Source of the DNA: Nitrospirota bacterium
GTDB lineage: Bacteria; Nitrospirota; UBA9217
NCBI GenBank assembly: GCA_035516965.1
Contig: DATIZR010000120.1
Span: forward strand, 967-64,966
DNA: 64,000 nucleotides
Direction of reading: 5' to 3'
In this document: in pieces, positions 36,169 to 64,000 of the stretch
Position numbering within the stretch: the stretch's first letter is position 1
Layout of the letters: every line of letters starts with the position of its first letter
The notes under the pieces: model-generated
What the model was told of the DNA's origin: nothing
The model's input: the letters and a program-made list of their open reading frames with translations, nothing else
Databases searched by the model: none
Position numbers and translations under genes: made by a program

Positions 36169-37602
36169 TTATTCTTTTCCCTTCGGTTCAAAATCGTCCT
36201 TGATCCTGAGGAACGTCGGGAGACTCCTGATCATCCTGAGGGCGCTGTGGGGCGACTTGAACATGAGCGGCACGAACTTGCGGGTCCAGTTCCTGCCTGT
36301 GTAGAACTGTTTCACGAACTGCTTGTATAATTCATCGAGCCGCTCCTTGGACGAAATTCCTTTCGGTACGAACACGAAATTGAGGCAGTTCATGAGGTCC
36401 CATTTCTCCTCGAAAACGCCTTCTTCCCGGATGGTCTGGTAGATCGGCGAGCCGGGGAAGGGCGTGAACTTGGTCATGTTCATGTCATCGAGCTCGAGGC
36501 CGTTGATAAAGTCCGTCGTGACCTTGACGGTCTCTTCGGTCTCGCCCGGGAGCCCCATCATGAACAGTCCCTTTGCGCGGAGCCCGGCCTTTTGAATGCG
36601 CCGGACCGTCGAGCGCATCTCGGGGAAATCTATTTTGGTCTTGTGCCTCGCGAGAATCTCCGGCGCGCCGGACTCGATGCCGACGCTGACCATCCAGCAG
36701 CCGGAGGCCTTGAGCATCCTGAGCATTTCGTCATCGGCGTGGCCCACGCGTACGGCGCAATTGAACGTCATCTTGAGCGGTTTCTCCCGCAGGAGATTGC
36801 AAAACTTCTCGATCCGTTCGCGGTTGAAGGTGAACAGGTCATCGTAGAAGAACACGTGCCGGATGTGGAACCGCTTCTTGAGGAACGCCATGTGCTCGTA
36901 AAGATACTCGGCCGAATTGAACCGGAAGCTCCTGCGGTATACGGAGCGGTCGCAGTAGGAGCACTGGTAGGGGCAGCCGCGGCTCGAGATTACCGTTGCG
37001 GTCGGCGTTTTCGGATAGTTGAACAGTGCTGCCTCGAAGCTTCCGGGAAATCCGTCGAGTTTATGGTAGGCGGGAAAAGGAAGCGAGTCAAGCTCGCAGA
37101 GATCGGTCCTGATCCCGTTGTCTCTGATCGTGCCCCCATCGCGAAAGACAAGCCCCTGGACTGTCTCCGGCTTCGCACCCGCAGCCAGCTCAGCCATGGC
37201 CTTCTCGCCTTCTCCCGTCACGAGGAGGTCAATGGCGGGAAATCGCTCCAGGATACTGCCGCGCAGCGCCGACACATGCACACCGCCAACAACGATCTTG
37301 ACACCGGGCCAGGACTCCTTGATCGCCTCTGCCTGATGGTAAGCGTTCAGGAAGCTCGACGTGACGGCCGTAAAGCCGACCATGTCGGGCCTGAAATCGG
37401 AAACGCGGGCAAGGACATCGGCCGTTCCGACGCGCGTCACCGGCCCCCGGCAGTCATGGATGGCGGTTTCGATCCCGCGCTGCTCCAGGTAGGCGGCGAT
37501 CGAGAGGAGACCGTTCGGCGCCATGCGGATGGCAGTCTCGCTCTTGTCATCACTCCCCTCGACCCAGTTCGAGCCGAAGGGGTTCACGAGCAGGACCCTC
37601 AT
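36169..37602 (-). CDS. B12-binding-domain radical SAM protein (class B)
   Basis: 477 aa. N-terminal Rossmann-like 'MRVLLVNP...NGLLSIAAYLEQRG...DMVGFTAVTS...IVVGGVH'. Radical SAM 'CPYQCSYC'. ATGA overlap with the upstream ligase gene (37599..37602). Confidence 0.8.
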   Translation of the reverse strand: MRVLLVNPFGSNWVEGSDDKSETAIRMAPNGLLSIAAYLEQRGIETAIHDCRGPVTRVGTADVLARVSDFRPDMVGFTAVTSSFLNAYHQAEAIKESWPGVKIVVGGVHVSALRGSILERFPAIDLLVTGEGEKAMAELAAGAKPETVQGLVFRDGGTIRDNGIRTDLCELDSLPFPAYHKLDGFPGSFEAALFNYPKTPTATVISSRGCPYQCSYCDRSVYRRSFRFNSAEYLYEHMAFLKKRFHIRHVFFYDDLFTFNRERIEKFCNLLREKPLKMTFNCAVRVGHADDEMLRMLKASGCWMVSVGIESGAPEILARHKTKIDFPEMRSTVRRIQKAGLRAKGLFMMGLPGETEETVKVTTDFINGLELDDMNMTKFTPFPGSPIYQTIREEGVFEEKWDLMNCLNFVFVPKGISSKERLDELYKQFVKQFYTGRNWTRKFVPLMFKSPHSALRMIRSLPTFLRIKDDFEPKGKE

Positions 37603-39053
37603 CGCTTCAACTTCCCGCTAGCGGTTTTCGGCAGCCGGTCCGTGAACTCGAAGTCCTTCGGCACCTTGTACTGGGCCAGGTGCTGATAGCAGAACTTCCG
37701 CAGGTCATTGATGTCCGGCTTCTCGGTACCATCGCGAAGCACTATCTTGGCCATCGGCAGTTGGCCGTATACAGCGTGGGGTGCGCCGTATACCAGCGAC
37801 TCCCGCACGTGCGGATGCCGGTTCAGAACGTCCTCTACTTCCTGGGCGAAGATCTTCATGCCCACGAAATTGATAACGTCCTTTTCCCTGCCGGCAATGA
37901 ACAGGTCTCCGTCGTCGTCCCTCCGGCCGAGATCGCCGGTCCTGAACCATCCGTCCGCAAGGATATCGTCCCTTCCCTGCCAGGGAGAATAGTAGGCATC
38001 GAGCATTCCCTTGCCCCTGACGAGGATCTCACCGACGCCGTTCTCGTTCCTGTTGTCGAGCTTGATCTCGAAATCCGGGAGCGGTTTACCGACGGAGCCC
38101 CTCTTTTCCCTGTTGCCGCCGAGCCTGACAAAGGGCAGGCCGACCTCGATGATGCCATAGGCCTCGGTCAGTTCGAACCCGAACTTCGCGGAGAACTCTT
38201 CTGCAACCTGTTCGGGAAGCCTGATCGCGGTCGAAACGGCCATGCGGACATTCCGGAGCGAATCCTTGGTCAAAAGACCGGAGCGGGAAAGGAGACTGTA
38301 ATGAAAGGGTGAAGCATAGATGAAGGTCCCCTTGCTCCTCGTGATGCCTTCGATCAGGGACTCCGGAAAGCGATGGCCGCACAGAACGATGGTGGCGCCC
38401 CGCCGGAGAAAGAGCAGGATGGTGACCACGAAGTGATAGCTCATGGAGAGGACCCAGAGCACCGTGTCCGCGGACGTGATCTGCAGGCCCTTGTCAGCAG
38501 CATCGGTCCGGTCGAGAATCGCCTCATGGGACAGCACTACACCCTTGCTCGTACCGGTCGTGCCGGAGCTGAAGCGGATAAAGGCCGGGTTGATGCGGAA
38601 ATATTCGGATGGCGGCCGCGCCCGCACCGTCCGTTTAACCAGGATCAATTCTTTCTGAGAGAGACCTTCAGAGGGCAGCGGTTCACCGTACCCTTCGGGT
38701 CTCAGCCGCGGCTCCGCAATGAGGTAATCCACGTCGATCCGGTCGATGACCGTCTCGATCTCATCGGCGGTCTGCTCCGGGGAAACCGGCGTAACGGCGG
38801 CGGAAAGAGACAGGATGGCGAGGCTGGCAATGATGTAGTCGATGCCGTCATCACACAGGAGCCCGACGCGGTGGGTCCGGGAGACACCCTTCCGCCGCAG
38901 CGTTTCCGCAAACATCCCGGCCGAAGCGATCAGCTGACCGTAGGTTATGCTTGAATCACCCTGGATGACTGCCGCCTTCCCGGCGAACGGCTCAGTTTCA
39001 CGCTTAATGATGTCGAAAATATTCATGAAAGGAAAATTCCGGTCGAGCAGCAC
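37599..39053 (-). CDS. AMP-dependent synthetase/ligase (acyl-CoA or acyl-ACP ligase-like)
   Basis: 484 aa. Adenylation cores 'FSSGTTGTSKGV', 'TEAYGIIE', 'GWFRTGDLG' and 'PKTASGKLKR'. Confidence 0.85.
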   Translation of the reverse strand: MLLDRNFPFMNIFDIIKRETEPFAGKAAVIQGDSSITYGQLIASAGMFAETLRRKGVSRTHRVGLLCDDGIDYIIASLAILSLSAAVTPVSPEQTADEIETVIDRIDVDYLIAEPRLRPEGYGEPLPSEGLSQKELILVKRTVRARPPSEYFRINPAFIRFSSGTTGTSKGVVLSHEAILDRTDAADKGLQITSADTVLWVLSMSYHFVVTILLFLRRGATIVLCGHRFPESLIEGITRSKGTFIYASPFHYSLLSRSGLLTKDSLRNVRMAVSTAIRLPEQVAEEFSAKFGFELTEAYGIIEVGLPFVRLGGNREKRGSVGKPLPDFEIKLDNRNENGVGEILVRGKGMLDAYYSPWQGRDDILADGWFRTGDLGRRDDDGDLFIAGREKDVINFVGMKIFAQEVEDVLNRHPHVRESLVYGAPHAVYGQLPMAKIVLRDGTEKPDINDLRKFCYQHLAQYKVPKDFEFTDRLPKTASGKLKR

Positions 39054-39138
39054 GGGAGGCGCAGAATTCGTGAAGAATCATGGCCAGAAAATACTGTGTG
39101 CCGTTGAGCCTTCCCGCGGCAACGCCGCTCTGTTCGTC

Positions 39139-40632
39139 TTACATTTTCTTGGGCAGATAGTCCTTATAGATATTCCGCATCGCGATGACGTACTTCGTGC
39201 CGTTCTTGATGCTCCGCACGATCTCACGGAAGGGAACCTTCGTCTTGTTCAGCCGGAGCGGATTGTGGCGCCAGCCGATGCTGTAGAGCCGGGCGAAGTG
39301 CGCGTAGAACTTTTTCATGTCCATCTTTGTCGGCAGCACGGTGTGCATGCAGTCGTAGTAGAGGTACGAATCGATGATGTAGTCGTTCTGGTGTTTGTGC
39401 CACAGTTCGGTTCCCGGCGAAGGGGAAAAGACCGTGAACGAAACCTCGGACGGGATGAGTTCGATAATGACCCTTTCGAGCCTCCGGAAATCCTCGACCG
39501 TGAACCCGGGATCCACCATCAGCGAGCCGTGCAGCAGGATGCCCGCCTCCCGCAGAATCTGCACTGCTTTCCTGTTCGTCTCCACCGAGGTTCGTTTTTT
39601 GTAATCCTTGAGGCGTTCCTCGTCCATGGCCTCCAGCCCTACGTAGACGATGTGGAGGCCGACCTCTTTCCAGAGCTTGAATAGTTCGGGATGATGGACG
39701 ATAGTGTCGGCGCGGGCCCAGCTCACGAACTTTTTCTTTATGCCGCGTGCTTTCAGCAGGTTCGCGATATCCGTGAGCCGCTTTGGGTTCAGGAAGGTCT
39801 CGTCGTCAACGAAGTAGATGTAATCTTCCTGGATGCCCGCGATCTCGTCCACCACGTCCTCGGGGCTTCGCTGAAGGTATTTGCCGCTCATCATGTGATG
39901 GACCACGCAGAACGCGCAACTGTAGGCGCACCCCGTCGAGGTCCTGATCGTGGCAATGGAGGGGTACATGGTCTCCAGCCGGTTGTTACCGTCCGGCGAG
40001 GTCCAGACCGAGAAATACCGCTTGCGGTCGACGAGCTCGCGACGGGGCCTTGGGATCGCTTCGACAGCCGGAAAGAGAGGCGGCTTCGCGCCCGCCTTCC
40101 GGGTGAACTCGATGTCCTGTACCGCGAGGACCGCATCTCCGTCCGCAAGGGTTTCACCTTTCTTATAGCGGTGGATAATGCCTTCGAATGCCGTGCCGCC
40201 TTCCCCGCGAACGACCAGGTCCATGTCCGAACCGGCGTAGTCCGCAGGAATGATCGTGGCGTGGATGCCGCCGGCCACGGTCAGGACGCCGGGCACCAGC
40301 ATTTTCGCCCGTTTGGCAAGGTCTTTTACGATGGCCGACTGGTTGCTGTAAGCCGTGAACCCGATGATGTCCGGCTGGAGCTCCCGCACGCGTTGTTCGA
40401 AAAAGGCCACCGGGTCTTTTTCCAGTGCGATGTCCTCGATCAGCACCCGGTCCTCCTTCGGGACCCCTCCCGCCACGATTTCGAGCTCCAGGGGCTCGAG
40501 GTGAAGGAAGTCCTGGAGCCTCCTTGCCACGAGAAGGTGCGAGTGCGGTTTGATGAGAAGGATGGTGAGGGGCTTGTTCTTTCCAAAGGCCTTCCCAGGC
40601 CTGGCGTCTACCGATGTCGTCGTCTGTGTCAT
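39139..40632 (-). CDS. B12-binding-domain radical SAM protein (class B)
   Basis: 497 aa. Contains 'ILLIKPH...DIIGFTAYSNQ...LTVAGGIHATI' followed by 'CAYSCAFC'. Confidence 0.8.
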   Translation of the reverse strand: MTQTTTSVDARPGKAFGKNKPLTILLIKPHSHLLVARRLQDFLHLEPLELEIVAGGVPKEDRVLIEDIALEKDPVAFFEQRVRELQPDIIGFTAYSNQSAIVKDLAKRAKMLVPGVLTVAGGIHATIIPADYAGSDMDLVVRGEGGTAFEGIIHRYKKGETLADGDAVLAVQDIEFTRKAGAKPPLFPAVEAIPRPRRELVDRKRYFSVWTSPDGNNRLETMYPSIATIRTSTGCAYSCAFCVVHHMMSGKYLQRSPEDVVDEIAGIQEDYIYFVDDETFLNPKRLTDIANLLKARGIKKKFVSWARADTIVHHPELFKLWKEVGLHIVYVGLEAMDEERLKDYKKRTSVETNRKAVQILREAGILLHGSLMVDPGFTVEDFRRLERVIIELIPSEVSFTVFSPSPGTELWHKHQNDYIIDSYLYYDCMHTVLPTKMDMKKFYAHFARLYSIGWRHNPLRLNKTKVPFREIVRSIKNGTKYVIAMRNIYKDYLPKKM

Positions 40633-40737: not shown

Positions 40738-41964
40738 TCATTTCCCGAAAGCCGGGTACTGACCGGACCTGACCAACTCGGCTGCGGCCCGGCCCGCCGC
40801 TTCCCCCAGGGCGATGCACGCGCCCATCACCCGAACGGAGCCGAGTGCCTGATGCGATACGGAAATGCAGCGTCCGGCAGTGAGGAGATTATGAAACCCT
40901 TTGACCTTCAGGCAGCGGAACGGTATTTCGTAGTAATCGTTCTGGGGCACGTACCGATACACGGGCCCCTTGGTCCGGTCCCAGAGCTCAATGGGCCACG
41001 AATTCTTTACAACGCCATCGGAGAACTTCTTTGCCGAAAGCACGTCCTCTTCGCTCAGGACGTACTCGCCGCGGATCCTTCTGCCCTCCCGGTCCAGAAC
41101 TCCGGAGGCTTCCCGGATCACGGCTTCGCGAAAAGAAGGGAGCCTTGCCGCGAGGATGGCCATTGCCCGGCTGACTTCCCCCCGCACCCGCGTTTCGCGA
41201 TCAGGGTGTTCCTGCTCCTCGGTGCTGAACTTGAGATAACCTTCCTCCGGAGCATCACCGGGGTGGAACGCCGTGAAACGCATGCTGGAAGAGAGCTGCC
41301 CGTGCTCCACAGCCTGTGCCAGCACGAAGGGTACCTTGATTGAAAGCGCCTGGTCCTGGCCCTGGAGGCCGCTGACCCGGACCGTGTAGCCGGCCATCTG
41401 GATCTCGTTGGGAGGCGCACAGTCGAACTCGGCCCCTGCCAGAAACCCGATCTCGCCGCTTCCTGTGCAGTCGATCACGGCCGATGTTCGGAGCGTCACG
41501 TGCATGCCCTTTTGATCGACGAGGATCCCGTCGATTGTGCCGCAGTCTGCGGTGACCGCGATCGCAACACTCTCACGAATCACCTCTATTCCCTGCTCGT
41601 TCCGGCAGAGTTCTCCCAGGACCTGTTCAAGGTCCGCTGACTCGTAGGGCAGGACAAAGACCTTCCCTGCCTTCTGGACGGTCCGCCGGGGAGACTTTTT
41701 CAAGAGCGCGGCAGCAATCTCCCGCGTTACTCCGGGGTTCAGTGTTTCCCCGGGTTCAGAACTCCCGCCGGCATAGAGCCCGCAGATCGTCCGAAGCATG
41801 CCGTGCGTACCGGTCCCGCCCAGCCGGCCCGATCTTTCAACCAGGATGACGCGGCACCCTTTCCGGGCTGCGCTGATTGCCGCTGCAACGCCGGCGACTC
41901 CCCCTCCTGCGACCAGAACTTCACCAACGATCGTTCCTTCCCTCCTGTCGATCAGAGACTGCAT
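40738..41964 (-). CDS. FAD-dependent oxidoreductase
   Basis: 408 aa. N-terminal dinucleotide fold 'VLVAGGGVAGVAAAISAARKGCRVILVER' and 'GGTGTHG'. Overlaps the upstream gene by 13 nt. Confidence 0.75.
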   Translation of the reverse strand: MQSLIDRREGTIVGEVLVAGGGVAGVAAAISAARKGCRVILVERSGRLGGTGTHGMLRTICGLYAGGSSEPGETLNPGVTREIAAALLKKSPRRTVQKAGKVFVLPYESADLEQVLGELCRNEQGIEVIRESVAIAVTADCGTIDGILVDQKGMHVTLRTSAVIDCTGSGEIGFLAGAEFDCAPPNEIQMAGYTVRVSGLQGQDQALSIKVPFVLAQAVEHGQLSSSMRFTAFHPGDAPEEGYLKFSTEEQEHPDRETRVRGEVSRAMAILAARLPSFREAVIREASGVLDREGRRIRGEYVLSEEDVLSAKKFSDGVVKNSWPIELWDRTKGPVYRYVPQNDYYEIPFRCLKVKGFHNLLTAGRCISVSHQALGSVRVMGACIALGEAAGRAAAELVRSGQYPAFGK

Positions 41965-43277
41965 CGGAGGTCACGCTCCAGGGTCTCCAGTTCTTCGTCA
42001 CCAAACAAGCCGTCGAGACAGGAGATCGTCGCGTTCAGCCGCCTGCTGTACGAATTAAAGAAGACGCCTATCCCCGGCGGCACGGGTGTTCTCGGCATGT
42101 GGAACAGGTTTACGATCTTCGCGCCAAGCAGGTCCGCGGACACAAAGGCGTCCTTGCTCACGTGCGAGAAGCAGAACGAAGCTATCTTTCCCTCCATGGG
42201 AAGATGAAAGATACGTTCCAGCAGCGGGAGGGGGGCGATTCGAGTCAGGGCGCCGGCAGCAGCGAGCTTTTCCGGGAAGCGGTTCTGCGTCTGCTCGTAA
42301 AGCTGGCTGCGGATCACGGTGATCAGCCGTTTTCGATCGCCCACGTCCTCCGGCTTTATCTGAAAGAAGAACATCGAGTTCTGGTTGAAGAACAGCTCTT
42401 CCCTGATGTCCTTTGCGCGGCGCATGTCTGTCGAAACGGGCACCACATAGGCCCCGGGAGCCGCCCCCCTGCCCTCGAACAGGCGGTGAAGACCCTGGAT
42501 CACGCGGCTGAACAGGTAGGGCATGATCATCAGGTACCCGGCCTCATCATAGGCGTTGTTCGTGATCCGCTTCGTCTCTTCCTCGTTGAAGGCGATGATC
42601 CGGAACCGGAAACCCCGGCTGCTGCTGCTCAGGCTGACCGGCACGGCACGCACCGGCTCCCCGGAGAGCGACCGGACCTTGCGGTTCACGACCTGTCCGG
42701 CGAGGAACTTGTTCTTCCAACCGGACAGGTCATAGTCCTGGATCAGCCGGATGTTGCCGACGACATCGTCCGAGTTTGCGGCGAGATAGCGCTGGAGCAG
42801 CCCCACGAAAGCCTCGGCTCCCCTCGCATCAAAGAGTCGGTGATCGAAGGTCATGGCGAAGCACTGCTCGCTCATTCCGTAGACCAGGTGGAACGCCAGG
42901 TGTTCGTCGCTTCCGGTGAATGGCGTATTGATGGATCGCGTCAGGACCGACAGGAGGTCCCGGTCGCGGGACGCTCCGTCCAGCCGGGTGACCGTGAGCG
43001 GCAGGGGATGTTCCCTGGGCCCGTTCGGTATCTTCCAGTAGGGAGTGAGCGTCCAGTGCCGGGACACGCGGCCGTTGATGACCGGGAAAAAACGGAGGAA
43101 GCGCCGCAGCGATTCGCGGACGAAGGCCTCGTCGGGCGGAGCATCGAGCATGAAGACGATCTGCGAGGAGTTCCCTGCGCAGGTGGCGTTCTTCATGATG
43201 AGGTCGATGGTCCCCATCACCCAGTCGAAGCCGCTGAGGTAGTATTTGTTCTTGACTGATAGGTACTCGGAGATCAT
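41952..43277 (-). CDS. condensation/acyltransferase-like protein (HxxxD motif)
   Basis: 441 aa. 'MTFDHRLFDARGAEAF' resembles the HHxxxDG catalytic motif of the condensation / WS-DGAT / PapA5-type acyltransferase superfamily. The assignment rests on this motif and on context only. Confidence 0.45.
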   Translation of the reverse strand: MISEYLSVKNKYYLSGFDWVMGTIDLIMKNATCAGNSSQIVFMLDAPPDEAFVRESLRRFLRFFPVINGRVSRHWTLTPYWKIPNGPREHPLPLTVTRLDGASRDRDLLSVLTRSINTPFTGSDEHLAFHLVYGMSEQCFAMTFDHRLFDARGAEAFVGLLQRYLAANSDDVVGNIRLIQDYDLSGWKNKFLAGQVVNRKVRSLSGEPVRAVPVSLSSSSRGFRFRIIAFNEEETKRITNNAYDEAGYLMIMPYLFSRVIQGLHRLFEGRGAAPGAYVVPVSTDMRRAKDIREELFFNQNSMFFFQIKPEDVGDRKRLITVIRSQLYEQTQNRFPEKLAAAGALTRIAPLPLLERIFHLPMEGKIASFCFSHVSKDAFVSADLLGAKIVNLFHMPRTPVPPGIGVFFNSYSRRLNATISCLDGLFGDEELETLERDLRCSL

Positions 43278-43278
43278 G

Positions 43279-43548
43279 CTACAGGTTCTTGTGGATGAAG
43301 GACGCCAGGGACCGGATTGTCTCGAAGTCTTGTCGTGTAAGGTCCGAGTGGATCAGTTGGAGTTTAAAGGTCTTCTCGATGAATACCAGGATCTCGACGA
43401 GGCCGAGTGAGTCGATCCCGAGTTCGTGGAACGGCTGGTCGCCTCCGAGAGATGCCTTGTCAGCCGCCAGTATGGCGGCTACGCCTTCCGTCAGCGTGCT
43501 TTCGATTTCCTGCACCGTGAACTTCTTGCCCGTTTCCTGAACCGCCAT
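43279..43548 (-). CDS. acyl carrier protein
   Basis: ORF trimmed to the ATG at 43548 ('MAVQETGKKF'). Phosphopantetheine site 'LGIDSLGLVEI'. Confidence 0.8.
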   Translation of the reverse strand: MAVQETGKKFTVQEIESTLTEGVAAILAADKASLGGDQPFHELGIDSLGLVEILVFIEKTFKLQLIHSDLTRQDFETIRSLASFIHKNL

Positions 43549-43658
43549 ATCCCGAAAAAATCCTTTCAGCTGGAGTGGTCTGCCTTGGCGCTTGAAGATC
43601 GATGGATGGATCGAGGGACCGGCCCGCTCGCGCAGCAGCATGGTACGTGATGATTAGA

Positions 43659-45895: not shown

Positions 45896-45954
45896 AGGCC
45901 GGTTATTGTACACTCCCCTTTGTTCTTTGTCCATGGGTTTGGCCATCAAGGCCA

Positions 45955-50606: not shown

Positions 50607-50885
50607 TTACTTCTTGTTATCGTAGATGAAGTTGGCGATGGTATTGATGGAGTGGAATATCTCCTTGCCCTGATCCATGTTCTTGACTTCGACGCCGAAG
50701 TTCCGCTGCAGCAGCACGACGATCTCCACGGCGTCCAGAGAGTCGAGCCCGAGCCCTTCCCCGAAGAGAACCTCATCGTCCTTGATGTCCGCCGGTTTGA
50801 CATCCTCGAGCGAAAGATCGCGGACGATCATTTCCTTGAGGTCCTTGCGGATTTGCACCAGTTCCTGTTCCTTTGCTTCTGCCAT
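50607..50885 (-). CDS. acyl carrier protein
   Basis: 92 aa. Contains 'LGLDSLDAVEIVVLLQRNFGV'. Confidence 0.88.
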   Translation of the reverse strand: MAEAKEQELVQIRKDLKEMIVRDLSLEDVKPADIKDDEVLFGEGLGLDSLDAVEIVVLLQRNFGVEVKNMDQGKEIFHSINTIANFIYDNKK

Positions 50886-57509: not shown

Positions 57510-57991
57510 GGATGCTGGTGGAACTCTCCCGACTTCCATCTTTTCCTGACCCGCTCGATCAGTTCCGGAGATATGATGCAGGCCTCGCCGGTCCGGTGAT
57601 CCGTAAAGAGCTGGACCGTGTAGCCACTGGTGGCCACCGTGCCATCCCCTTTGAGCAGCTGGAATTCGGTGTTCAGCTTCGCTCCTTCATGCCAGATCAG
57701 AGATGCCCTGATCGTGAACTCCTCGTCCAGGAAGATCGGCCGGTAGTAGTCGATATGGAGGTCCACAATGGGCGCGCGGAGGCCCGCTTCGAAGAAGTCC
57801 CTGTAGGACAGTCCACACCGTCTTCCAAGCTCCTCGGATGCTTCCTCGAAGTAGAGCGGGTACCTGCCGTGCCACGCGATCGCCATCGGGTCGGCCTCAT
57901 TGAAGCGCACGCGACGTCTGATATCAACGACGATGGGAGCCGGCGCTCCGGCAATCCGCTCAAAATAGGTTGTCTTCCTCCGTGGTATCAT
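57506..57991 (-). CDS. 4HBT/YbgC-type acyl-CoA (or acyl-ACP) thioesterase
   Basis: 161 aa hotdog protein with 'VRFNEADPMAIAWHGRYPLYFEEA'. Confidence 0.75.
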   Translation of the reverse strand: MIPRRKTTYFERIAGAPAPIVVDIRRRVRFNEADPMAIAWHGRYPLYFEEASEELGRRCGLSYRDFFEAGLRAPIVDLHIDYYRPIFLDEEFTIRASLIWHEGAKLNTEFQLLKGDGTVATSGYTVQLFTDHRTGEACIISPELIERVRKRWKSGEFHQHP

Positions 57992-58000
57992 CGTCTCGTC

Positions 58001-58372
58001 TCAGTCGGTGAAGGCGACCCGCAATTTCAGTTCCGCAATCTTGGTGTCTCCCCGCGTGATCATCGTCTTGAACGTGAATTCGCCTGCATCGAGGACGTCA
58101 CTGCATGAGCAGGTGATCTCCTCGCCCGGGGCGACCGGCGCGAAGTATTTGGCAAGGACGACTTCCCGGAGCGCGGCATGCCGGTGCTTCGCCTGTTCCA
58201 GCGATGAGAGCGCGCATTGGATCTGGCATACACCGGGCAGGACCTTGTTGTCCGGGAAATGCCCCTGGAACCCGACGAAATCCGCGGGAAAGCGGAACCG
58301 GGACGTGACCGTCCGCTCCCGCGATTCCAAGGCGCTCATGCAGCGCACGATCTCAGCCTTCACCTTTGTCAC
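58001..58372 (-). CDS. FabZ/FabA-like 3-hydroxyacyl-ACP dehydratase
   Basis: 123 aa with a GTG start. Catalytic-His context 'FQGHFPDNKVLPGV'. Confidence 0.75.
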   Translation of the reverse strand: MTKVKAEIVRCMSALESRERTVTSRFRFPADFVGFQGHFPDNKVLPGVCQIQCALSSLEQAKHRHAALREVVLAKYFAPVAPGEEITCSCSDVLDAGEFTFKTMITRGDTKIAELKLRVAFTD

Positions 58373-59076
58373 TCGCGAATCTCCTTCTGCCGCACGATCA
58401 AGCGGTATCCGTTCCGGTAGTTCGAGAGAACAATGCCCATGGGATAGAGCCTGCCGTTCCTGCTCCGGTGCTCGTAATAAGATACCCTCCAGACAGCGCG
58501 GTGGTCTTCCCGGTACGTCTTGCTGGTCAGAGGCAGCCCCTCGCCGGAGAACTCATACTCCAGGGCCCCGTCGCCGGACCGCTGCCGGAACAGGATAGCC
58601 TGTCTCCTCTTCACCACACGTGCATCGAGCGAGGGTACGAGGTCCAGATAGATCCGCTTGATGTCCTCTGCGACCACTGACGCGATGTCCCCCTGTCGGG
58701 CCAGCGGTTCTATCATGTACTTGTGGGTCAGGCCGTTCCGGTCGCCTTCGAACTCTAAGATCTTGACGCCGAGGTAGTTCATGCAAACGACCTTGTATCG
58801 CCCGGCAGTGGTGTCTACATCGAGGTATCCGATCCCGGAAACGGAGAACCAATTATACTCAAAAACAATGGAGCTGAGCAAATGAAAATCATCGGGAACA
58901 GCTCTTCCGAACCGCTCCGCCACTGCCACAGGATCGGCATCGTCCACGGCGACTGGCGCCGCAGCGCGGAAGGGAACGGGCGAAGCGCAGCCAAACAGCA
59001 ATCCCGCAAGAAGCGCCGCCGGAACAATCGTTTTCACAGCGCCTGCTCCCGGTTTGCCGGCGTCAGGATGCTGCAC
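58369..59076 (-). CDS. lipoprotein (possibly DUF3261-like, as in aryl-polyene-type clusters)
   Basis: Lipobox 'LLAGLLFGC'. No enzymatic motif seen. The start is uncertain because the ORF overlaps the MMPL gene by 43 nt. The family name is a recollection. Confidence 0.5.
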   Translation of the reverse strand: MQHPDAGKPGAGAVKTIVPAALLAGLLFGCASPVPFRAAAPVAVDDADPVAVAERFGRAVPDDFHLLSSIVFEYNWFSVSGIGYLDVDTTAGRYKVVCMNYLGVKILEFEGDRNGLTHKYMIEPLARQGDIASVVAEDIKRIYLDLVPSLDARVVKRRQAILFRQRSGDGALEYEFSGEGLPLTSKTYREDHRAVWRVSYYEHRSRNGRLYPMGIVLSNYRNGYRLIVRQKEIRE

Positions 59077-61424
59077 AGCGACGGGACGACAATGACCGAG
59101 GAGAGGTAGCCCGTTGTCATGCAGATCACCATGGCGATGCTCGTCGAGTAGAACGCTGGATGCTTGGCAAAGAGGAGGACTCCAGCCCCGATGATGTTCG
59201 TCGCGGCCGACAGCGTCACGGCGACTACCGTTCCGATCCTGAGGTTGTACCGGTACTCATAGGTCATGCCGAGGCCGTAATCCACGATGACGCCGGTCGT
59301 CACGATCGCGGCGACGATATTCACCACGTTCAGGGGTATCTTGAAGATCGCCATGAAACCGATGAGCCACGTCACGCCCGTGATGACCGGGACCAGGGAG
59401 ATGAAGGCCTCCCGCCAATTCCGGAAGAAGAACCACGCCAGCACCACGTTGAACAGGAACGCGAGCGGTGCCAGGATCTTCGCTTCCCGGATCGTGAACG
59501 CCGATATGGAATCTGACAGCTTCCTGCCCGAAACGATGAAGGAGCCTGGATGGTCCCGTGCGATCGCGCTGAGAGCATCGACAGAGGACGGCTCGTCCGG
59601 AAAAAAGGAAAGGACCCTGCATGAATCGTCCCGGCGCACAACAAAGCGCTCCTGGATCCGCGCCACCATGCCGTTCGCATTATTATTTCCCGCGACCCGA
59701 TGGCTGTACAGCCCGCTGAAAAAGGGAGCGAAGGCCCGGTCCGAAAAACCGTATTGCGCCGAGGCCCGGCTGATCATGATCCGGAGCTTCGCTTCCCTGC
59801 CGGTCCGCCAAAAACTGTCCCAGCGCTGCGCATTCTCCCGTCTGGTCCTTTCCGACGCCCAGAACATCCCGATGTTCGTGAAATTCTCCGGGCCGACCAC
59901 CGCTGACGCTTCGCGGTACACGCGGTCATTCAGTTCCATCGCCTCTTCATAGGTCTTCGCCTGAACGACGAAGATCGCCTGGTTGCTCTTGCCTCCCCAG
60001 GTGTCGTGGAAGTTCTGCTCCGCCTTGAGGACCGACGGTTCGCTCCCGTCGAGTTTCTTCACGTCGCTGTCGAACTTAACCTGGAACGAGAATACGAGTG
60101 CCGCGGCGGTCAGGAGCGACCAGACGACAACGATCGTCCGGGCCGGCCAGCGGACCTTTTTCATCCGGTTGCCGATCGTCGGGTCCGACGCGAGGGAGTA
60201 CCGGTCCCAGGACAGGACGAGAGGAAGGACCGCGAGGGAGAGCCCCAGGCAGAGAAGCACGCAGAGCATCGAGAACAGCGACAGCTGATGGTATCCCCGG
60301 ATCACCGAGAAATAAAGCACGAAAAAGCTGAATACTGTGGTGATTGCGTCGATAGACACGAGCTTCGCGAGCTTCACCATCTGGGATGCGTCGGCTCCCC
60401 GCTTCATGGCTATGTAGACCAGAAGGCCGTAGTCGATCGAGATGCCGGCGATCGCCGTTCCGAACCCGATGACCAGGTAGGACAGCGTCCCCTCCGCAGC
60501 GCTCGTCAGGATGATCGACCAGAGTACAGCGATGATCGGGATGACGTAGACGAAGAAGACCCTCAGGTCACGAAAGACGACCAGGAAGAGAACCATGAAC
60601 GCGATCGAAGCGATCGCCGATGCGGTCTTGATGTCGCGGGTGATCACTTTTTCATTGCTCACCGTATGCAGGTGGCCGCCGATGACATCCGCGGTAACAC
60701 TCTCAGGCAAGCGCCCGAGCTCCCCTTCCAGCACCCGGAGGAGCTCTTTGCTCCGCTGGCTGTCCGTCATGGGAACAGAGGTCTGGGCGATCACCATCGC
60801 GTGGCGGCCGTCGCGGCTCACGAAGTGGCCGTCCTCGACGGCGACGTCGTAACCCATGGATGCGGGAAGGGCCTTTAGCTTTCCGTAGAGCAGCGACTTA
60901 ATCCCGAGCGGGTCCGTTCGGGAGAAGGATGCCGTGAAGATGCTCTCGGGCCGGAAGGACTGGAGATAGATCTGCTTGAGTTTTGCGGCAACGGCCGGCG
61001 GCGTGATCTCGTGGTCCAGCGCCGCCAGTTCATCCCCCGTCAGAACTTGCGGCGCATACTGGAGCACCGAAAACTCATCCATCGCGTCGGCCACGGAGAT
61101 GCCGGACATGACCTTGGTGAACAGCGGCGGCGTGAGCGCGGCGGACAGCTGGTCGACGGCGGAGAAGAGCTCTTTCTTTCCCTTTTCCGGGTCGTTCAAT
61201 GCAAGAGAAATGATGATCTTGTCGGACAGGTTCGATTCGCGCAGGAACTGCAGGCTCCTCGTGACTTCCGGGTCAGGGGGGAGCATGAGGTCGATGTTTC
61301 CTTCGTAGCGGATTAGGGTCAGCCCGGCAACGGCTGCCGCCGTGAAACACGCGATGATCAGCAGGACAAGCCGCTTGTGCGCCCGCGAGAGCTCAAAAAG
61401 GCGCGAAAAAAAGCGATCACCCAT
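59034..61424 (-). CDS. MMPL/RND-superfamily lipid exporter
   Basis: 796 aa. Two repeats, each made of a large soluble loop plus a hydrophobic bundle (for example 'IASIAFMVLFLVVF...', 'LAFLFNVVLAWFFF...'). Confidence 0.8.
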   Translation of the reverse strand: MGDRFFSRLFELSRAHKRLVLLIIACFTAAAVAGLTLIRYEGNIDLMLPPDPEVTRSLQFLRESNLSDKIIISLALNDPEKGKKELFSAVDQLSAALTPPLFTKVMSGISVADAMDEFSVLQYAPQVLTGDELAALDHEITPPAVAAKLKQIYLQSFRPESIFTASFSRTDPLGIKSLLYGKLKALPASMGYDVAVEDGHFVSRDGRHAMVIAQTSVPMTDSQRSKELLRVLEGELGRLPESVTADVIGGHLHTVSNEKVITRDIKTASAIASIAFMVLFLVVFRDLRVFFVYVIPIIAVLWSIILTSAAEGTLSYLVIGFGTAIAGISIDYGLLVYIAMKRGADASQMVKLAKLVSIDAITTVFSFFVLYFSVIRGYHQLSLFSMLCVLLCLGLSLAVLPLVLSWDRYSLASDPTIGNRMKKVRWPARTIVVVWSLLTAAALVFSFQVKFDSDVKKLDGSEPSVLKAEQNFHDTWGGKSNQAIFVVQAKTYEEAMELNDRVYREASAVVGPENFTNIGMFWASERTRRENAQRWDSFWRTGREAKLRIMISRASAQYGFSDRAFAPFFSGLYSHRVAGNNNANGMVARIQERFVVRRDDSCRVLSFFPDEPSSVDALSAIARDHPGSFIVSGRKLSDSISAFTIREAKILAPLAFLFNVVLAWFFFRNWREAFISLVPVITGVTWLIGFMAIFKIPLNVVNIVAAIVTTGVIVDYGLGMTYEYRYNLRIGTVVAVTLSAATNIIGAGVLLFAKHPAFYSTSIAMVICMTTGYLSSVIVVPSLCSILTPANREQAL

Positions 61425-62094
61425 GTCCTTTTACCTCGAAGCTGGAACTGTCCAGGGGAACGTTCAGGAGGGTGTTGAGGAAGATGATGGTCGTGACATC
61501 CCCGCTCACCTCCTTGATCCGTATCTGCTTGAGGTACTTCCCATCGTCCCGGAACGTGATCGTGATGCTTTTGATGACCTTCCTGGCCACGTTCTTCTCC
61601 TGCGGGACGAACTCGAGCACGAGGGGATCGTTCTGCACCTGCCGGATATCATTTACCGCGAGAAGCGACGAGTAGTCGCCGGAGAACCAGACCGTGATCT
61701 GGTTCAGCACATTCTGAAAGATTGGATTCTTCGCAAGAGATATTTCCTGCACCCTGTTCGTGTCCTCGTCCCACTGCCGTATGACCCTGTCCGTGATCAG
61801 GACCGAATAGCGTACCGGGGAATCGACATGCCAGGCGACCTTGTTCGGTTTTTGCAGATAGATCCGGCCTTTCATGACGAGCTTCTCCTTGAACATGGCC
61901 ATCTCTTTTTCCTGCAAAAAATCCGTCTTCAGCGTGGAGAAGTCGGAAACCCTCTTCCCCAGCTCGGCCAGGAACACCGCCATGTCGGGTTGCCCCCCGG
62001 CAGGTTTCTCGGATGCAATCAGCGTCACGGGAAGGTTGACGAACACCAGGAGGAGGATCGGCGCACAAAACTTCATCAGTTTTCGCAGGAGCAT
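61417..62094 (-). CDS. LolA-like periplasmic lipid/lipoprotein carrier protein
   Basis: Signal peptide 'FCAPILLLVFVNLPVTLIAS'. 'FLQEKEMAMFKEKLVMKGRIYLQKPNKVAWHV...IRQWDEDTN' is LolA-like. Confidence 0.62.
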   Translation of the reverse strand: MLLRKLMKFCAPILLLVFVNLPVTLIASEKPAGGQPDMAVFLAELGKRVSDFSTLKTDFLQEKEMAMFKEKLVMKGRIYLQKPNKVAWHVDSPVRYSVLITDRVIRQWDEDTNRVQEISLAKNPIFQNVLNQITVWFSGDYSSLLAVNDIRQVQNDPLVLEFVPQEKNVARKVIKSITITFRDDGKYLKQIRIKEVSGDVTTIIFLNTLLNVPLDSSSFEVKGHG

Positions 62095-63584
62095 TACTTG
62101 TTCACCGTTTCCACGCCGCTCTGATAGACCTTGACCTCGCCGCGGGCGACCAGTTCAGCGCCGTGGTGTATCTCGCCGTGCACGATCCCGAAATCGCCGT
62201 ACTTCGCGGTCTTCACGACGGAGATGCGGAGTGTGTCGCCGGCCCTCGCGGACCCAAGGACCTCGAGCTTCTTGATGCCGAGCAGGAAACCTTCCGGCTG
62301 CGAGTCCCGGCTGCCGAGCTTGCGGAACCCCTCCTGCGCGGCGATCGCCTGGGAAATGATTTCCGGATAGGAGGCCTCGTCCAGGGTCCCGCTGCCGTTC
62401 ATGAAGATAGAGTCAGCCTTCACGGTCATTTCCGAGACAGAGGCGCGCTCTTTCATCTCGATCAGCCGGTCGATCTGAAGCATCGGGGGCTTATGCGGCA
62501 CGAGGAGGGCCGCGTCAACGGGGAGGTAGAGGATCTCCTCTTTTTTGTCCAGGTTCTTCCAGCAGAGCGGATCAGAGGCAAGATAATCACCGGTCAATTG
62601 ATAGGCCGCACCGCGGCAGCCGTAACACTCGTTCAGGTGTTCGCAGGAACCGCAGGGACCCTTGATCATGTGCCGGTAACGCTTCAGGTCCTGGACGACC
62701 TCGCTATCCCCCAGGATGTCCTTGAGCTTTTTTTCCCGCACATTGCCGATCGGGATCGTGACACCCACGCAGGGCTGTACGTTGCCTTCGGAGCTGACGG
62801 CGCAGGAGAACTGGTGCCTGAGGCAGACCCCGCCCACGAGCGGCGGCCTGGGGTCCCAGTGATTCCCGTACTTCCTGCGGTCGAGCTCGGCGATCTTGTG
62901 AAAAAACTCTTCCGCCTGGCTGGTGGTGATGTCGAGGGCGGCATTGTCCTTTGCCCCGCCCTGGGGCGTGATCATCTCGAAATAGGGCGCGATGTTCTGG
63001 TCCCGCAGCCATTCCCACAGCCGGGGAAGCTCTTCGATGTTCTGCTGACAGATGATGGTGCTGACGCCCATGAACCGGTCTTCCGACGGATAGCCGGCCT
63101 TCTTCAGATTGTTGAAGGCGTCACGGATCTGCGTGTAGGCTCCCTTTTTCCCGGACAGCGTGTCCTGCAGTTTTTCATCGAAGGTGTTCATCTTGAGCAC
63201 GACCCTCACCTTCAGGTCATAGAGCGTGGCGGCCATGTCCGGCGTGATGCCCGTCCCGTTCGTGAACAGCTCGATCTCCAGGGAAAGGCCCCGGATGAAC
63301 CGGATCATCTCCAAAATGGGGGGATAGAGCATGGGCTCGCCGCCGAGCACGATGATCTTGCGCGCTCCCAGGTCCTTTGCCTGGGTGATGACCTCCTGGA
63401 ACTGTTCCTTCGTGAGCTCGTTCCGCTTCCGGCCGTTCTCGAAGGCATAGCAGTAGACGCAGCGGAAATTGCAGACGCTGTTGAACTCGATTTCCATCGA
63501 CAGCAGCCTGCCGTTTTGGACCGCTTCTGCGATTTCTGCGGCGGAGAATTCCGCCGCGTAGATGCGTGTCTGACAAGTATTCAT
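62094..63584 (-). CDS. fusion protein: radical SAM/SPASM domain (N) + hotdog dehydratase-like domain (C)
   Basis: 496 aa. 'CNFRCVYC' (63450..63473). SPASM-like 'CLRHQFSC...VQPCVG...GPCGSCEHLNECYGCRG'. C-terminal ~140 aa 'LLVPHKPPMLQIDRL...' resembles the hotdog dehydratases of aryl-polyene clusters. Confidence 0.75.
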   Translation of the reverse strand: MNTCQTRIYAAEFSAAEIAEAVQNGRLLSMEIEFNSVCNFRCVYCYAFENGRKRNELTKEQFQEVITQAKDLGARKIIVLGGEPMLYPPILEMIRFIRGLSLEIELFTNGTGITPDMAATLYDLKVRVVLKMNTFDEKLQDTLSGKKGAYTQIRDAFNNLKKAGYPSEDRFMGVSTIICQQNIEELPRLWEWLRDQNIAPYFEMITPQGGAKDNAALDITTSQAEEFFHKIAELDRRKYGNHWDPRPPLVGGVCLRHQFSCAVSSEGNVQPCVGVTIPIGNVREKKLKDILGDSEVVQDLKRYRHMIKGPCGSCEHLNECYGCRGAAYQLTGDYLASDPLCWKNLDKKEEILYLPVDAALLVPHKPPMLQIDRLIEMKERASVSEMTVKADSIFMNGSGTLDEASYPEIISQAIAAQEGFRKLGSRDSQPEGFLLGIKKLEVLGSARAGDTLRISVVKTAKYGDFGIVHGEIHHGAELVARGEVKVYQSGVETVNK

Positions 63585-64000
63585 GGGCTCTTTCTCTTAT
63601 CGACGAACCTGGTTAATTTCCGGGCATTCCCGGTGTAGACCTGTTTTCGCACTTCATCCTCGCTCGTGACGATCACTTCCGGCCTGACCCGCAGATGGAC
63701 CTGGAGCCTGTCCATGATCATCGCGGCAGTGCAGTCCTTGTCCTTCACCGCCACCGTGACCGTGATCCTGTCGGAAAGGTCGTAGTCGCTCGTCGCCGTA
63801 ACGTAGTATTCGCTGACTCCCGGGAAAGAATCGAGGACAGCATAGAGCGAGTTCGGGTAGAGCGTCGTCCCCCGGAACTTGATCATCTGCTTCTTTCTGC
63901 CAAGGATGGGACCGAGCCGGGGCGAGAACCTTCCGCAGGAGCATGGCTCGCCGGTCAGGAAACTGACATCGCCCGTCCGGAACCTGAACAGCGGCATTCC
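63581..64000 (-). CDS. phenylacetate-CoA ligase (PaaK)/F390-synthetase-family adenylating enzyme, C-terminal part only (gene runs off the window)
   Basis: 'FRFRTGDVSFLTGEPCSCGR...LGRKKQMIKFRGTTLYPNSL' is typical of the PaaK-family C-terminal region. ATGA overlap with the next gene (63581..63584). Confidence 0.7.
   Translation of the reverse strand, partial: GMPLFRFRTGDVSFLTGEPCSCGRFSPRLGPILGRKKQMIKFRGTTLYPNSLYAVLDSFPGVSEYYVTATSDYDLSDRITVTVAVKDKDCTAAMIMDRLQVHLRVRPEVIVTSEDEVRKQVYTGNARKLTRFVDKRKSP

Follow-up and report, generated by a model that had tools for sequence, protein, structure and literature searches.

A conserved, radical SAM-rich gene cluster with an aryl-polyene/flexirubin-type backbone in a Nitrospirota genome

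The stretch of DNA analyzed here (the window) comprises 64,000 nucleotides of a Nitrospirota bacterium of the UBA9217 lineage (assembly GCA_035516965.1, contig DATIZR010000120.1, positions 967 to 64,966). From position 36169 to its end it holds a biosynthetic cluster in which polyketide/fatty-acid-type genes stand together with seven radical S-adenosylmethionine (SAM) enzyme genes. A listing of open reading frames (ORFs) with translations gives 25 credible minus-strand genes across 36169-64000, and it bears out a first-pass annotation, made from the sequence alone, that every ORF from 36169 to the edge is on the minus strand and that the last gene is cut. We label the genes g01 (36169-37602) to g25 (63581-64000), numbered against the direction of transcription; g25 overruns the window. 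The cluster is very probably a copy of a conserved orphan type of predicted operon in anaerobic Nitrospirota and Geobacterales/Desulfuromonadia, and the matches described below point to a backbone of the aryl-polyene (APE)/flexirubin type.

The exact g24 protein is present on metagenome contigs of 35-126 kb (L001-L003 among them), which match the window at 1999 of 2000 bases in the overlap. Past position 64000, these contigs provide the extension that had been proposed at first pass, supplying the remainder of g25 (436 aa in full) and then five further genes.

g26, past the window on the identical contigs: PlsC-type acyltransferase
g27, past the window on the identical contigs: acyl carrier protein (ACP)
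g28, past the window on the identical contigs: ApeR-like ketosynthase (KS)
g29, past the window on the identical contigs: CrtD-like amine oxidase
g30, past the window on the identical contigs: ApeQ/FlxB-like ketoreductase (KR) of the short-chain dehydrogenase/reductase type

The cluster comprises about 30 genes over about 33 kb, from 36169 to the window-equivalent position ~69561, and ends at the KR gene g30, which is the first conserved gene in all relatives reaching that far. Upstream of g30 are an FMN reductase gene and then a divergent MacB/FtsX ABC transporter; both were rejected as cluster members because they are not conserved beside the cluster in any relative. A sigma-70-like promoter match (11 of 12 consensus positions) lies ~85 nt upstream of g30. 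At the other end, a 175-bp gap after g01 contains a second match of the same quality (11/12), and beyond this gap are DUF5752, TreT and amylase genes followed by the pyr operon.

The backbone genes inside the window are as follows.

g25, 63581-64000, minus strand: aryl-acid ligase of PaaK/FlxY type (436 aa in full), of which the window edge leaves the C-terminal 139 aa
g20, 58001-58372, minus strand: small hot-dog dehydratase subunit, ApeI type
g19, 57506-57991, minus strand: 4HBT-fold thioesterase, ApeK type
g18, 56388-57539, minus strand: KS, with a probable start at 57509
g17, 55665-56336, minus strand: short (223 aa) Cys-less KS-like partner, ApeC type
g12, 50607-50885, minus strand: ACP, ApeE type
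g08, 44714-45955, minus strand: KS homologous to ApeO
g07, 43659-44717, minus strand: Cys-less KS-like partner of g08, of the chain-length-factor (CLF) type
g06, 43279-43641, minus strand: ACP accompanying the second KS/CLF pair

As a BLASTP reference for these proteins we used the ape cluster of E. coli CFT073 (L062:33727-48748). The closest matches are those of g27 to ApeF (44% identity), g28 to ApeR (42%) and g30 to ApeQ (41%), followed by g12 to ApeE (36%), g08 to ApeO (35%, over full length) and g19 to ApeK (33%); g18 matches ApeR/ApeO at 31-34%. The matches to ApeI, ApeM and ApeP are weak (g20 24%, g22 25% and the g24 C-terminus 26%). Taken together, the cluster covers the Ape-type functions ApeC/D/E/F/I/J/K/M/O/P/Q/R.

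Both g18 and g08 contain the N- and C-terminal KS domains of Pfam, and the g08 translation includes the motif HGTAT. PDB sequence matches of g18 include FabF, 9s5h_B and 6qsp_A (ApeO); for g08 the top match is 9s5h_B at 208 bits, with 6qsp_A also among the FabF-like structures. Aligned by MAFFT with ApeR, ApeO and ApeC of E. coli, g08 (GHTLGAAG), g18 (GHTMGAAG) and the off-window KS g28 show both the catalytic Cys and the His motif GHTxGA. The catalytic Cys position is occupied by Phe in g07 and by Gly in g17, as it is by Arg in ApeC. Pfam finds in g07 the ketoacyl-synt N-terminal domain only (65 bits), and the GH..GA motif is absent; g17 scores 24.6 bits for ketoacyl-synt and is shortened like the 240-aa ApeC. 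The ACPs g12 and g06 both match PP-binding (39 bits for g06, which has a DSLG serine motif in its translation), and g12 also passes NCBIfam PRK09184 (72 bits, cut-off 70). The thioesterase g19 matches 4HBT_2 at 63 bits, and g25 contains AMP-binding_C_2. No enoyl-reductase-type domain was found in any cluster gene.

For the starter ligase, the KR and the LolA-like carrier, the best named families are those of the flexirubin clusters of Bacteroidota, with NCBIfam scores of 460 bits for FlxY (cut-off 520), 291.5 for FlxB (340) and 115 for LolA2 (125). All three proteins miss the equivalog cut-offs and appear, by family score, to be flexirubin-like. The dehydratase g20 had been called FabZ-like at first pass; a dehydratase assignment survives in the ApeI-like form, at a Pfam ApeI-like score of 20 bits that is under the gathering score of 28.5, with a BLASTP match to E. 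coli ApeI at E 3e-5 and a precomputed ApeI-like match on the identical contigs. The APE-type chassis as a whole, proposed in the first-pass annotation, is upheld by the BLASTP matches to the CFT073 cluster, by PDB matches to ApeO and ApeP and by the near-cut-off flexirubin scores, and its list of parts stands almost throughout on Pfam scores above gathering, structure prediction and BLAST.

Seven radical-SAM enzymes accompany this backbone.

g24, 62094-63584, minus strand: radical SAM-SPASM protein fused to an ApeP-type dehydratase
g16, 54397-55668, minus strand: divergent member of the radical SAM enzymes, carrying a B12-binding-like domain
g15, 53033-54400, minus strand: B12-binding radical SAM protein, member of TIGR04072
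g11, 49030-50529, minus strand: radical SAM protein of class C type, resembling HemN, a rare accessory
g09, 45955-47718, minus strand: alpha/beta-hydrolase (GHSTG) fused to radical SAM-SPASM, an accessory
g03, 39139-40632, minus strand: B12-binding radical SAM protein, nearest to the hopanoid C-3 methylase HpnR
g01, 36169-37602, minus strand: B12-binding radical SAM protein, nearest to HpnJ/BchE, the last cluster gene

All seven contain CxxxCxxC in their translations. In g24, Radical_SAM (89 bits) and SPASM (31 bits) domains are followed by an ApeP-like region that scores 23 bits, under the gathering score of 27; this C-terminus matches the ApeP structure 6qsr_B at E 6e-6 and E. coli ApeP at E 2e-8. 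The fusion is found at full length in 41 of 42 loci. The g15 protein scores 624 bits against TIGR04072 (cut-off 360), over model positions 1-442 of 443. This family has the short name rSAM_ladder_B12 and the full name 'lipid biosynthesis B12-binding/radical SAM protein'. As next best, g15 matches the models for BzaD, at 203 bits, and for the TsrM family, at 141 bits; the nearest solved structure by sequence is TsrM (6wte), and g15 has more than 7000 homologues at E <= 1e-20. Both BzaD and TsrM are methylases of sp2 carbons.

Radical SAM and B12-binding Pfam models are both passed by g01, g03 and g15, giving class B architecture, with Radical_SAM at 88 bits and B12-binding at 79 bits in g01 and 78 and 59 bits in g03. 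The neighbor of g15, g16, falls just short of both (B12-binding 31.1 bits, gathering 32.1; Radical_SAM 28.1 bits, gathering 29.5) and belongs to no curated family. Its residues C173, C177 and C180 are invariant among homologues, and its AlphaFold2 (AF2) model (pLDDT 80) finds AprD4 as the best Foldseek match (TM 0.75), followed by MgmA, TsrM, MiaB and CysS. We take the predicted fold to indicate a real Rossmann-plus-radical-SAM architecture. AprD4 is a diol dehydratase that works without cobalamin, and cobalamin binding by g16 is therefore only putative. The four B12-binding radical-SAM proteins counted at first pass thus comprise three that pass Pfam and one, g16, that is just below the threshold and agrees in its modeled fold; with this reservation, the search with profile models supports the radical-SAM and B12 assignments.

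None of g01, g03, g15 and g16 reaches the NCBIfam equivalog cut-off of HpnR, HpnJ, BchE, TsrM or BzaD. The g03 protein scores 236 bits against the HpnR model (cut-off 650) and is not an equivalog, and the best match of g01 is HpnJ at 185 bits (cut-off 578). Tailoring of branched glycerol dialkyl glycerol tetraethers, membrane-spanning lipids or hopanoids, prompted by these HpnR/HpnJ-like matches, was rejected, since the scores are far under the equivalog cut-offs and the context is polyketide synthase (PKS)/ACP rather than isoprenoid. The two remaining enzymes are of other kinds: g09 has N-terminal Abhydrolase_6 and Thioesterase matches and then Radical_SAM (64 bits) and SPASM (43 bits), and g11 has Radical_SAM (80 bits), HemN_C (37 bits) and a GGGTP motif, with ChuW/HutW as its best NCBIfam match (176 bits, cut-off 400).

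A set of lipid-anchoring, glycosyltransferase (GT) and export genes lies among the backbone genes.

g23, 61417-62094, minus strand: LolA-like periplasmic carrier
g22, 59034-61424, minus strand: MMPL/RND-type exporter, ApeM type
g21, 58369-59076, minus strand: probable lipoprotein, in the slot of ApeN/DUF3261 in E. coli
g14, 51847-53172, minus strand: GT2 with a DUF2062 membrane domain, with a probable start at 53046
g13, 50970-51905, minus strand: lysophospholipid/lipid-A-type acyltransferase (LPLAT)
g10, 47721-48944, minus strand: GT1-family (MGT/EryCIII-like) glycosyltransferase, an accessory

The LolA-like g23 matches Pfam LolA at 68 bits. The exporter g22 passes Pfam MMPL (23.7 bits, gathering 20.5), scores ~70 bits against NCBIfam HpnN/HAE3, under the cut-off, and matches ApeM in two BLASTP segments. 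The first-pass call of g21 as a lipoprotein is plausible in its signal-peptide-like N-terminus, which ends in an LFGC lipobox, and the mature part is conserved in 34 loci; it finds no support from families, as g21 has no match in Pfam or NCBIfam, DUF3261 included. Pfam places Glycos_transf_2 (69 bits) and DUF2062 (44.5 bits) in g14 and Lip_A_acyltrans (55 bits) in g13. The accessory g10 is above gathering for Glyco_tran_28_C (28.6 bits) and UDPGT (23.7 bits), just below it for EryCIII-like_C (30.8 bits) and under the NCBIfam cut-off for MGT (46 bits). The 558-aa ApeJ of E. coli CFT073 (L062:41212-42888) spans two window genes, g14 and then g13: its N-terminal half aligns with g14 (31% identity) and its C-terminal half, residues 235-553, with g13 (27%). 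Because its halves align to separate genes here, ApeJ looks like a glycosyltransferase-acyltransferase fusion.

Three further genes of the tail complete the cluster.

g05, 41952-43277, minus strand: stand-alone acyltransferase with a condensation-domain (CAT-superfamily) fold
g04, 40738-41964, minus strand: FAD-dependent oxidoreductase
g02, 37599-39053, minus strand: acyl-AMP/CoA ligase of FadD/MenE type, with an ATGA overlap with g01

Sequence searches with g05 gave no Pfam, NCBIfam or PDB match, and a profile search gave marginal matches only, to the DHRxxDG motif of E2 acyltransferases. Its 595 homologues are mostly named 'hypothetical', a few 'NRPS condensation-like', and share an invariant H146-x3-D150-x2-G153. 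The AF2 model (pLDDT 84, pTM 0.87) has as its best Foldseek matches the CDA C1 domain of a nonribosomal peptide synthetase (NRPS; E 2e-17), wax ester synthase/diacylglycerol acyltransferase (WS/DGAT) and TRI3. The invariant motif and the model, with its matches to NRPS C domains and WS/DGAT, agree with the HxxxD condensation-like protein recognized at first pass and indicate a predicted condensation-fold acyltransferase that stands alone. The oxidoreductase g04 matches FAD_oxidored (PF12831) at 267 bits and is found in 22 related loci at a median identity of 51%. The ligase g02 matches AMP-binding (185 bits) and AMP-binding_C (77 bits), and its best NCBIfam match is a long-chain fatty-acid-CoA ligase (259 bits, under the cut-off).

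To place the cluster among relatives, species-representative genomes were scanned with g15, which gave 55 loci, and metagenomes with g24, which gave 36 more; gene order was assessed by tblastn of all cluster proteins against the loci. The closest g15 loci belong to uncultured Nitrospirota (78-82% identity), the next to Geobacterales, Pelobacteraceae, Desulfuromonadales and Thermodesulfovibrionia, and single matches come from Elusimicrobia, Nitrospinota and Deferribacteres. The order g25-g24-...-g13-g12-(variable slot)-g08-g07-g06-g05-g04-g03 is kept in about 40 of the 55 genome loci, and the upstream block g30-g25 (KR, oxidase, KS, ACP, PlsC, ligase) in the 7 metagenome loci that extend there. 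An isolate with a complete genome, Pelobacter propionicus DSM 2379 (CP000482.1, locus at about 959.9-981.1 kb), has an identical order from PlsC to g05 and is without the tail block g04-g01. The first-pass annotation had named the candidate ladderane loci of anammox bacteria as the only other clusters that mix type II fatty-acid synthesis paralogues with several B12-radical-SAM genes. The cluster is no rarity: across genomes and metagenomes the same order recurs in more than 50 loci, and in one cultured isolate, and the type was described as an orphan in 2009.

The radical-SAM genes differ in how constantly they are present. The g16/g15 pair is found in almost every locus covering that part, and the order g18 (KS)-g17 (Cys-less)-g16-g15 in all loci of sufficient length. 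Across the loci, median identity to the window is highest for g12 (83%), g16 (82%), g15 (74%), g25 (72%) and g24 (69%), and lowest for g05, g21 and g17 (45-48%); g16 is 81% identical to its P. propionicus homologue. The g16/g15 pair is better conserved across phyla than the KS genes. Because the core radical-SAM enzymes are among the most constrained proteins of the cluster, they are not decoration. The g03 gene is present in 16 related loci at a median identity of 64%. The g02 and g01 genes are seen only in loci long enough to include them, and g01 is absent from many relatives; a Nitrospiraceae metagenome-assembled genome (MAG; L063) carries an identical tail g05-g04-g03-g02-g01, with g01 at 82% identity. 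The number of seven radical-SAM enzymes given at first pass therefore stands, but it had lumped together three that are core (g24, g16, g15), two that are frequent (g03, g01) and two that are rare accessories (g09, g11).

In every sufficiently long locus, P. propionicus included, g08-g07-g06-g05 follow g12. The slot between g12 and g08 is variable. A polysaccharide-deacetylase (Polysacc_deac_1) gene occupies it in 33 related loci, again including P. propionicus (e.g. L063:6154-7143); this gene is absent from the window, where the slot is filled by g11-g10-g09. The g10 and g09 genes travel together in 5-6 loci, at varying positions, and g11 occurs in only 2 of the 55 genome loci; the related locus L013 also has g09-g11. 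A different arrangement of the g16/g15 pair is seen in an Elusimicrobia MAG (L042, 10001-11326 plus flanks), which has genes resembling fatty-acid synthase (FAS) genes on the opposite strand. The pair may be able to move as a unit between different lipid clusters.

Strand by itself is weak evidence on operon structure. All genes between 974 and 64000, a span of 63 kb that takes in pheST, the pyr operon and the trehalose genes, lie on the minus strand, and cumulative GC skew declines steadily along the window. The co-direction of the cluster reflects a chromosome-wide strand bias and is not evidence for an operon. The seven four-nucleotide overlaps quoted at first pass were all located, ATGA at 63581, 57506, 54397, 44714 and 37599 and GTGA at 58369 and 55665. 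Its total of 13 overlapping junctions out of 24 becomes 14 of 24 when the longest ORFs are taken, a count that depends on the choice of start codons and is approximate because several genes truly begin further in than their longest ORF. For g08, g11, g13 and g14, homologues point to later starts. Probable starts are 54400 for g15, 57509 for g18, ~53046 for g14 (called at 399 aa on an identical metagenome contig) and ~50421 for g11, whose homologues align from residue 36; homologues of g06 are ~80 aa, so its start is probably later too. With the likely g11 start, the g11-g12 gap is ~185 bp, the longest in the cluster. An Arg/Ser-rich ORF of 134 aa (50399-50803, minus strand) that overlaps the g11 start region and this gap is without support and was judged spurious. 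Terminator-like sites number 16 against 16.4 expected from shuffled sequence and, being no more frequent than in shuffled sequence, are uninformative on operon structure. An Rfam scan of the window found a PyrR element only, and no RNA element, cobalamin riboswitch included, upstream of the cluster.

The cluster can be compared with several known systems. With the ape clusters of E. coli and Xenorhabdus it shares a short Cys-less CLF like ApeC and the lack of an enoyl reductase; it also has a predicted export trio of LolA-like carrier, MMPL protein and putative lipoprotein, of which Pfam confirms the first two while g23 and g21 have no BLASTP match to ApeL or ApeN. It differs from them in having no counterparts of ApeA, the methyltransferase ApeB or ApeG, in having a second KS/CLF/ACP set and an ApeP fused to radical SAM-SPASM, and in adding 4-6 further radical-SAM enzymes, an amine oxidase, an FAD oxidoreductase and a condensation-fold enzyme. 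A likeness to flexirubin lies in the polyene acid esterified to a second lipid moiety, which would suit the tail module; unlike flexirubin clusters, this cluster shows no genes for tyrosine ammonia-lyase (TAL), DarA or DarB. Flexirubin clusters are not known to contain radical-SAM enzymes.

[quoted passage not shown] Rattray et al. (2009) described this locus as syntenic with loci of Desulfotalea, Geobacter and Pelobacter carbinolicus, and detected no ladderanes in D. psychrophila, which has the syntenic cluster (DP1853-DP1860 region; PMC2649909). Likened by way of the published gene tables, the Kuenenia-type parts correspond here to g25 (ligase), g29 (oxidase), g30 (FabG type), g27/g12/g06 (ACPs) and g14 (GT). 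Both also have two adjacent radical-SAM genes among FabF paralogues that include a non-canonical one (Cys-less here), a FabZ-type dehydratase and a membrane protein. In contrast, the SAM methylases kuste3338 and kuste3347 of the Kuenenia tables are not seen here, and the window is without the deacetylase and has in addition the HemN-like radical-SAM enzyme, the GT1 and the hydrolase-radical SAM fusion. The kinship with anammox candidate loci that had been suspected from the sequence is borne out by the membership of g15 in TIGR04072, a family named for this context, and by the parallel gene content in the published tables (PMC4790861 Table 2; PMC2649909).

Ladderane synthesis itself is now placed in a second, anammox-specific locus, kuste3603-3608 (PMC10139942; preprint 10.64898/2026.05.19.726425). 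[quoted passage not shown] It resembles the present cluster in pairing a KS with a dead KS beside a radical-SAM enzyme of B12 type and in having a desaturase-like flavoenzyme, and differs in being reported as anammox-specific and in lacking the APE export set. We take the structure 9s5h_B, a heterodimeric entry, to be amxFabF2, which fits the preprint (10.64898/2026.05.19.726425); the 208 bits of g08 against it are barely above the 203 bits for ordinary FabF. A more distant likeness is to the jawsamycin pathway, where a HemN-like radical-SAM enzyme (Jaw5 there, working with an iterative PKS; g11 here) is also found within a polyketide/fatty-acid-type cluster, with the difference that g11 is a rare accessory and is nearest to ChuW/HutW.

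By gene content, then, the cluster appears to be of the same orphan type as the locus common to Kuenenia, Desulfotalea, Geobacter and Pelobacter in the work of Rattray et al. (2009). As judged from homology, its backbone is a complete APE/flexirubin-type type II PKS. This has a FlxY-like ligase, an ApeR-like KS and two KS/CLF pairs, a KR with an ApeI:ApeP-type dehydratase, and three ACPs with a thioesterase, accompanied by a predicted anchoring set (PlsC, LPLAT, GT2-DUF2062) and a predicted export set (LolA/MMPL/lipoprotein). For the product class we tentatively propose a radical-SAM-modified polyene acyl chain that is lipid-anchored and exported to the outer membrane, a proposal that has slightly less than an even chance of being right. 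The explanation as a whole, cluster type together with product, we consider on balance to be probable. At first pass, the predicted product was an outer-membrane lipid whose anchored chain would be methylated, cyclized or cross-linked, which is reasonable as a prediction.

The literature searched reports no product for any member of the cluster type, and we therefore infer all of the chemical steps from the genes. The PKS would build a conjugated, probably aryl-primed polyene acyl chain on an ACP, and the core radical-SAM enzymes would act on intermediates still bound to the ACP, while the chain grows or just afterwards. For the TsrM/BzaD-like g15, the chemistry is most likely to be C-methylation of an sp2 carbon of the ring or polyene, and g15 may in this way replace the absent methyltransferase ApeB. 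The AprD4-like g16 might carry out a non-methylating radical step of dehydration or dehydrogenation type, or serve as a partner to g15, and g24 could link radical chemistry with dehydration, its SPASM domain adding a radical step of the same type. Transfer by the thioesterase, the acyltransferases and GT2 would then bring the chain to a glyco- or lysolipid anchor, and LolA, the MMPL protein and the lipoprotein would carry the anchored chain to the outer membrane. In the tail module g06-g01, a second acyl group may be loaded (g02 to g06), coupled (g05) and modified (g04, g03, g01). The genes g11, g10 and g09 would be strain-level tailoring options.

Several observations weigh against this explanation. 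In the literature searched, no paper ties the gene set to a characterized product, and PMC12758564 touches on ladderanes in passing only. Among cluster proteins compared with the E. coli ape cluster, none has a BLASTP match to ApeH, ApeL, ApeN or ApeC; at E 1e-3 there is none between g25, which is PaaK/FlxY-type instead, and ApeH, and likewise none of g17 or g07 to ApeC, of g23 to ApeL or of g21 to ApeN. Curated cut-offs are missed by the Pfam matches to ApeI-like and ApeP-like and by each of the three NCBIfam matches to flexirubin models, and the cluster has no gene of TAL or chorismate-lyase type for an aryl starter. The best structural match of g16 binds no cobalamin, and radical-SAM proteins with B12 domains are not always methylating, non-methylating chemistry being known for them also. 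Finally, g04-g01 are missing in P. propionicus, and the tail may be a functionally separate module.

This last point leads to the alternative that survives best, which is that two or more separate clusters lie side by side here: an APE-like core from g30 to about g12, and an acyl/lipopeptide-like module g08-g01 that has a KS/CLF, an ACP, a condensation enzyme, a ligase and radical-SAM enzymes of its own. Such a division would account for the absence of g04-g01 from P. propionicus and their variability elsewhere, for accessory genes that come and go in the g12-g08 slot, and for gaps of 77-105 bp, or ~185 bp with the likely g11 start, at those points. The constant succession of g12 and g08-g05 argues against it, as does g08 itself, which is the best ApeO homologue, so that the APE set is incomplete without it; there is also no excess of terminator-like sites. 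We consider separate clusters improbable, if worth keeping in mind.

Rattray et al. put forward an anaerobic pathway that would yield polyunsaturated fatty acids or hydrocarbons, and this has a somewhat smaller chance of being correct. Here the type II fatty-acid synthesis (FAS-II) paralogues, oxidase and radical-SAM enzymes would put double bonds into ordinary acyl chains for membrane lipids or Ole-type hydrocarbons. The idea draws on D. psychrophila, which has the syntenic cluster and no pfa genes and makes polyunsaturated hydrocarbons (PMC2649909), and on the conservation of a CrtD-like amine oxidase and an FAD oxidoreductase in the cluster. The hydrocarbon link is, however, a correlation in one organism. 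The cluster is without an enoyl reductase, its backbone fits Ape/flexirubin, and the route would leave the aryl-type PaaK/FlxY ligase and the ApeI:ApeP dehydratase unexplained and give the LolA/MMPL/lipoprotein export set no role in bulk fatty-acid synthesis.

It is very unlikely that the product is a ladderane-like lipid, with cyclobutane or other rings, made outside the anammox bacteria. Membership of g15 in the rSAM_ladder_B12 family, the parallel with Kuenenia kuste3335-3352 (PMC4790861) and the HemN-like g11, of a class that includes the cyclopropanase Jaw5 (PMC13459092), all invite this reading; antiSMASH, moreover, labels such loci 'ladderane' in many phyla, and these calls outside anammox bacteria have been reported and left unexplained (PMC9902471). 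Against them stand the absence of ladderanes from D. psychrophila despite its syntenic cluster (PMC2649909) and the assignment of ladderane synthesis to the anammox-specific kuste3603-3608 (preprint 10.64898/2026.05.19.726425; PMC10139942). In addition, the carriers are Nitrospirota and Geobacterales and not of the anammox class Ca. Brocadiia, and the HemN-like gene is found in only 2 of 55 loci. Least probable of all is an ordinary aryl-polyene/flexirubin pigment cluster with unrelated radical-SAM neighbors, for although the chassis alone would suffice for an APE-type pigment, the radical-SAM genes are interleaved with the PKS genes, the radical SAM-dehydratase fusion recurs in 41/42 loci and g16/g15 are conserved above the KS genes across phyla, so that the g24 fusion and this conservation exclude the radical-SAM genes as mere neighbors.

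To return to a radical-SAM-modified polyene chain as the product, a more far-reaching version of it is that g24, g16 and g15 methylate polyene intermediates tethered to the ACP, or close rings on them, and so create new C-C bonds. Anaerobic Nitrospirota and Geobacterales would then make a class of ketoacyl or polyene outer-membrane lipids, modified by radical-SAM enzymes, that has not been seen before, and the enzyme set, shared with Kuenenia, would be the toolkit behind the origin of ladderane synthesis. We are more inclined to doubt this version than to accept it.

Elsewhere in the window, a few features outside the cluster deserve mention. A PyrR-binding RNA element (RF00515, 54.6 bits, gathering 54) lies at 28780-28903 on the minus strand, directly upstream of pyrR-pyrB-pyrC, with carA, carB and a PyrK/PyrD type-1B dihydroorotate dehydrogenase further downstream; between carA and carB in this pyrimidine run is a gene for a 306-aa radical SAM protein with no other domain (22562-23482, minus strand). 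The gene at 10092-12734 on the minus strand encodes 880 aa in which a poly(A)-polymerase/CCA-adding head domain is fused with CBS and DHH/DHHA1 phosphoesterase domains; for a tRNA nucleotidyltransferase, such a combination is unusual. A DUF5752 protein (33965-35993, minus strand, 208 bits) is encoded directly upstream of genes for a trehalose synthase of TreT type and two members of the alpha-amylase family, and DUF5752 may belong to trehalose or glycogen metabolism.

The cluster type itself is not new: its description dates from 2009, a curated family serves as its marker, antiSMASH flags it, and it occurs very commonly in environmental anaerobes. The window adds one gene-rich variant. How radical-SAM enzymes modify ketoacyl lipids has hardly been explored (PMC13459092), and work on ladderanes has stalled because anammox bacteria lack genetics and their radical-SAM enzymes do not express (PMC10139942, PMC4790861). 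The cluster type sets 3-7 radical-SAM enzymes in a well-understood APE-type assembly and export line, and a cultured carrier makes the question testable. Once solved, the product would add a lipid class to those of bacteria that abound in soil and sediment, give a function to TIGR04072 and to the highly conserved g16 family, and test the ladderane link of the genes shared with Kuenenia. If the C-C bond-forming version is true, the chemistry would be solvable in a cultured carrier outside the anammox bacteria, such as Pelobacter propionicus.

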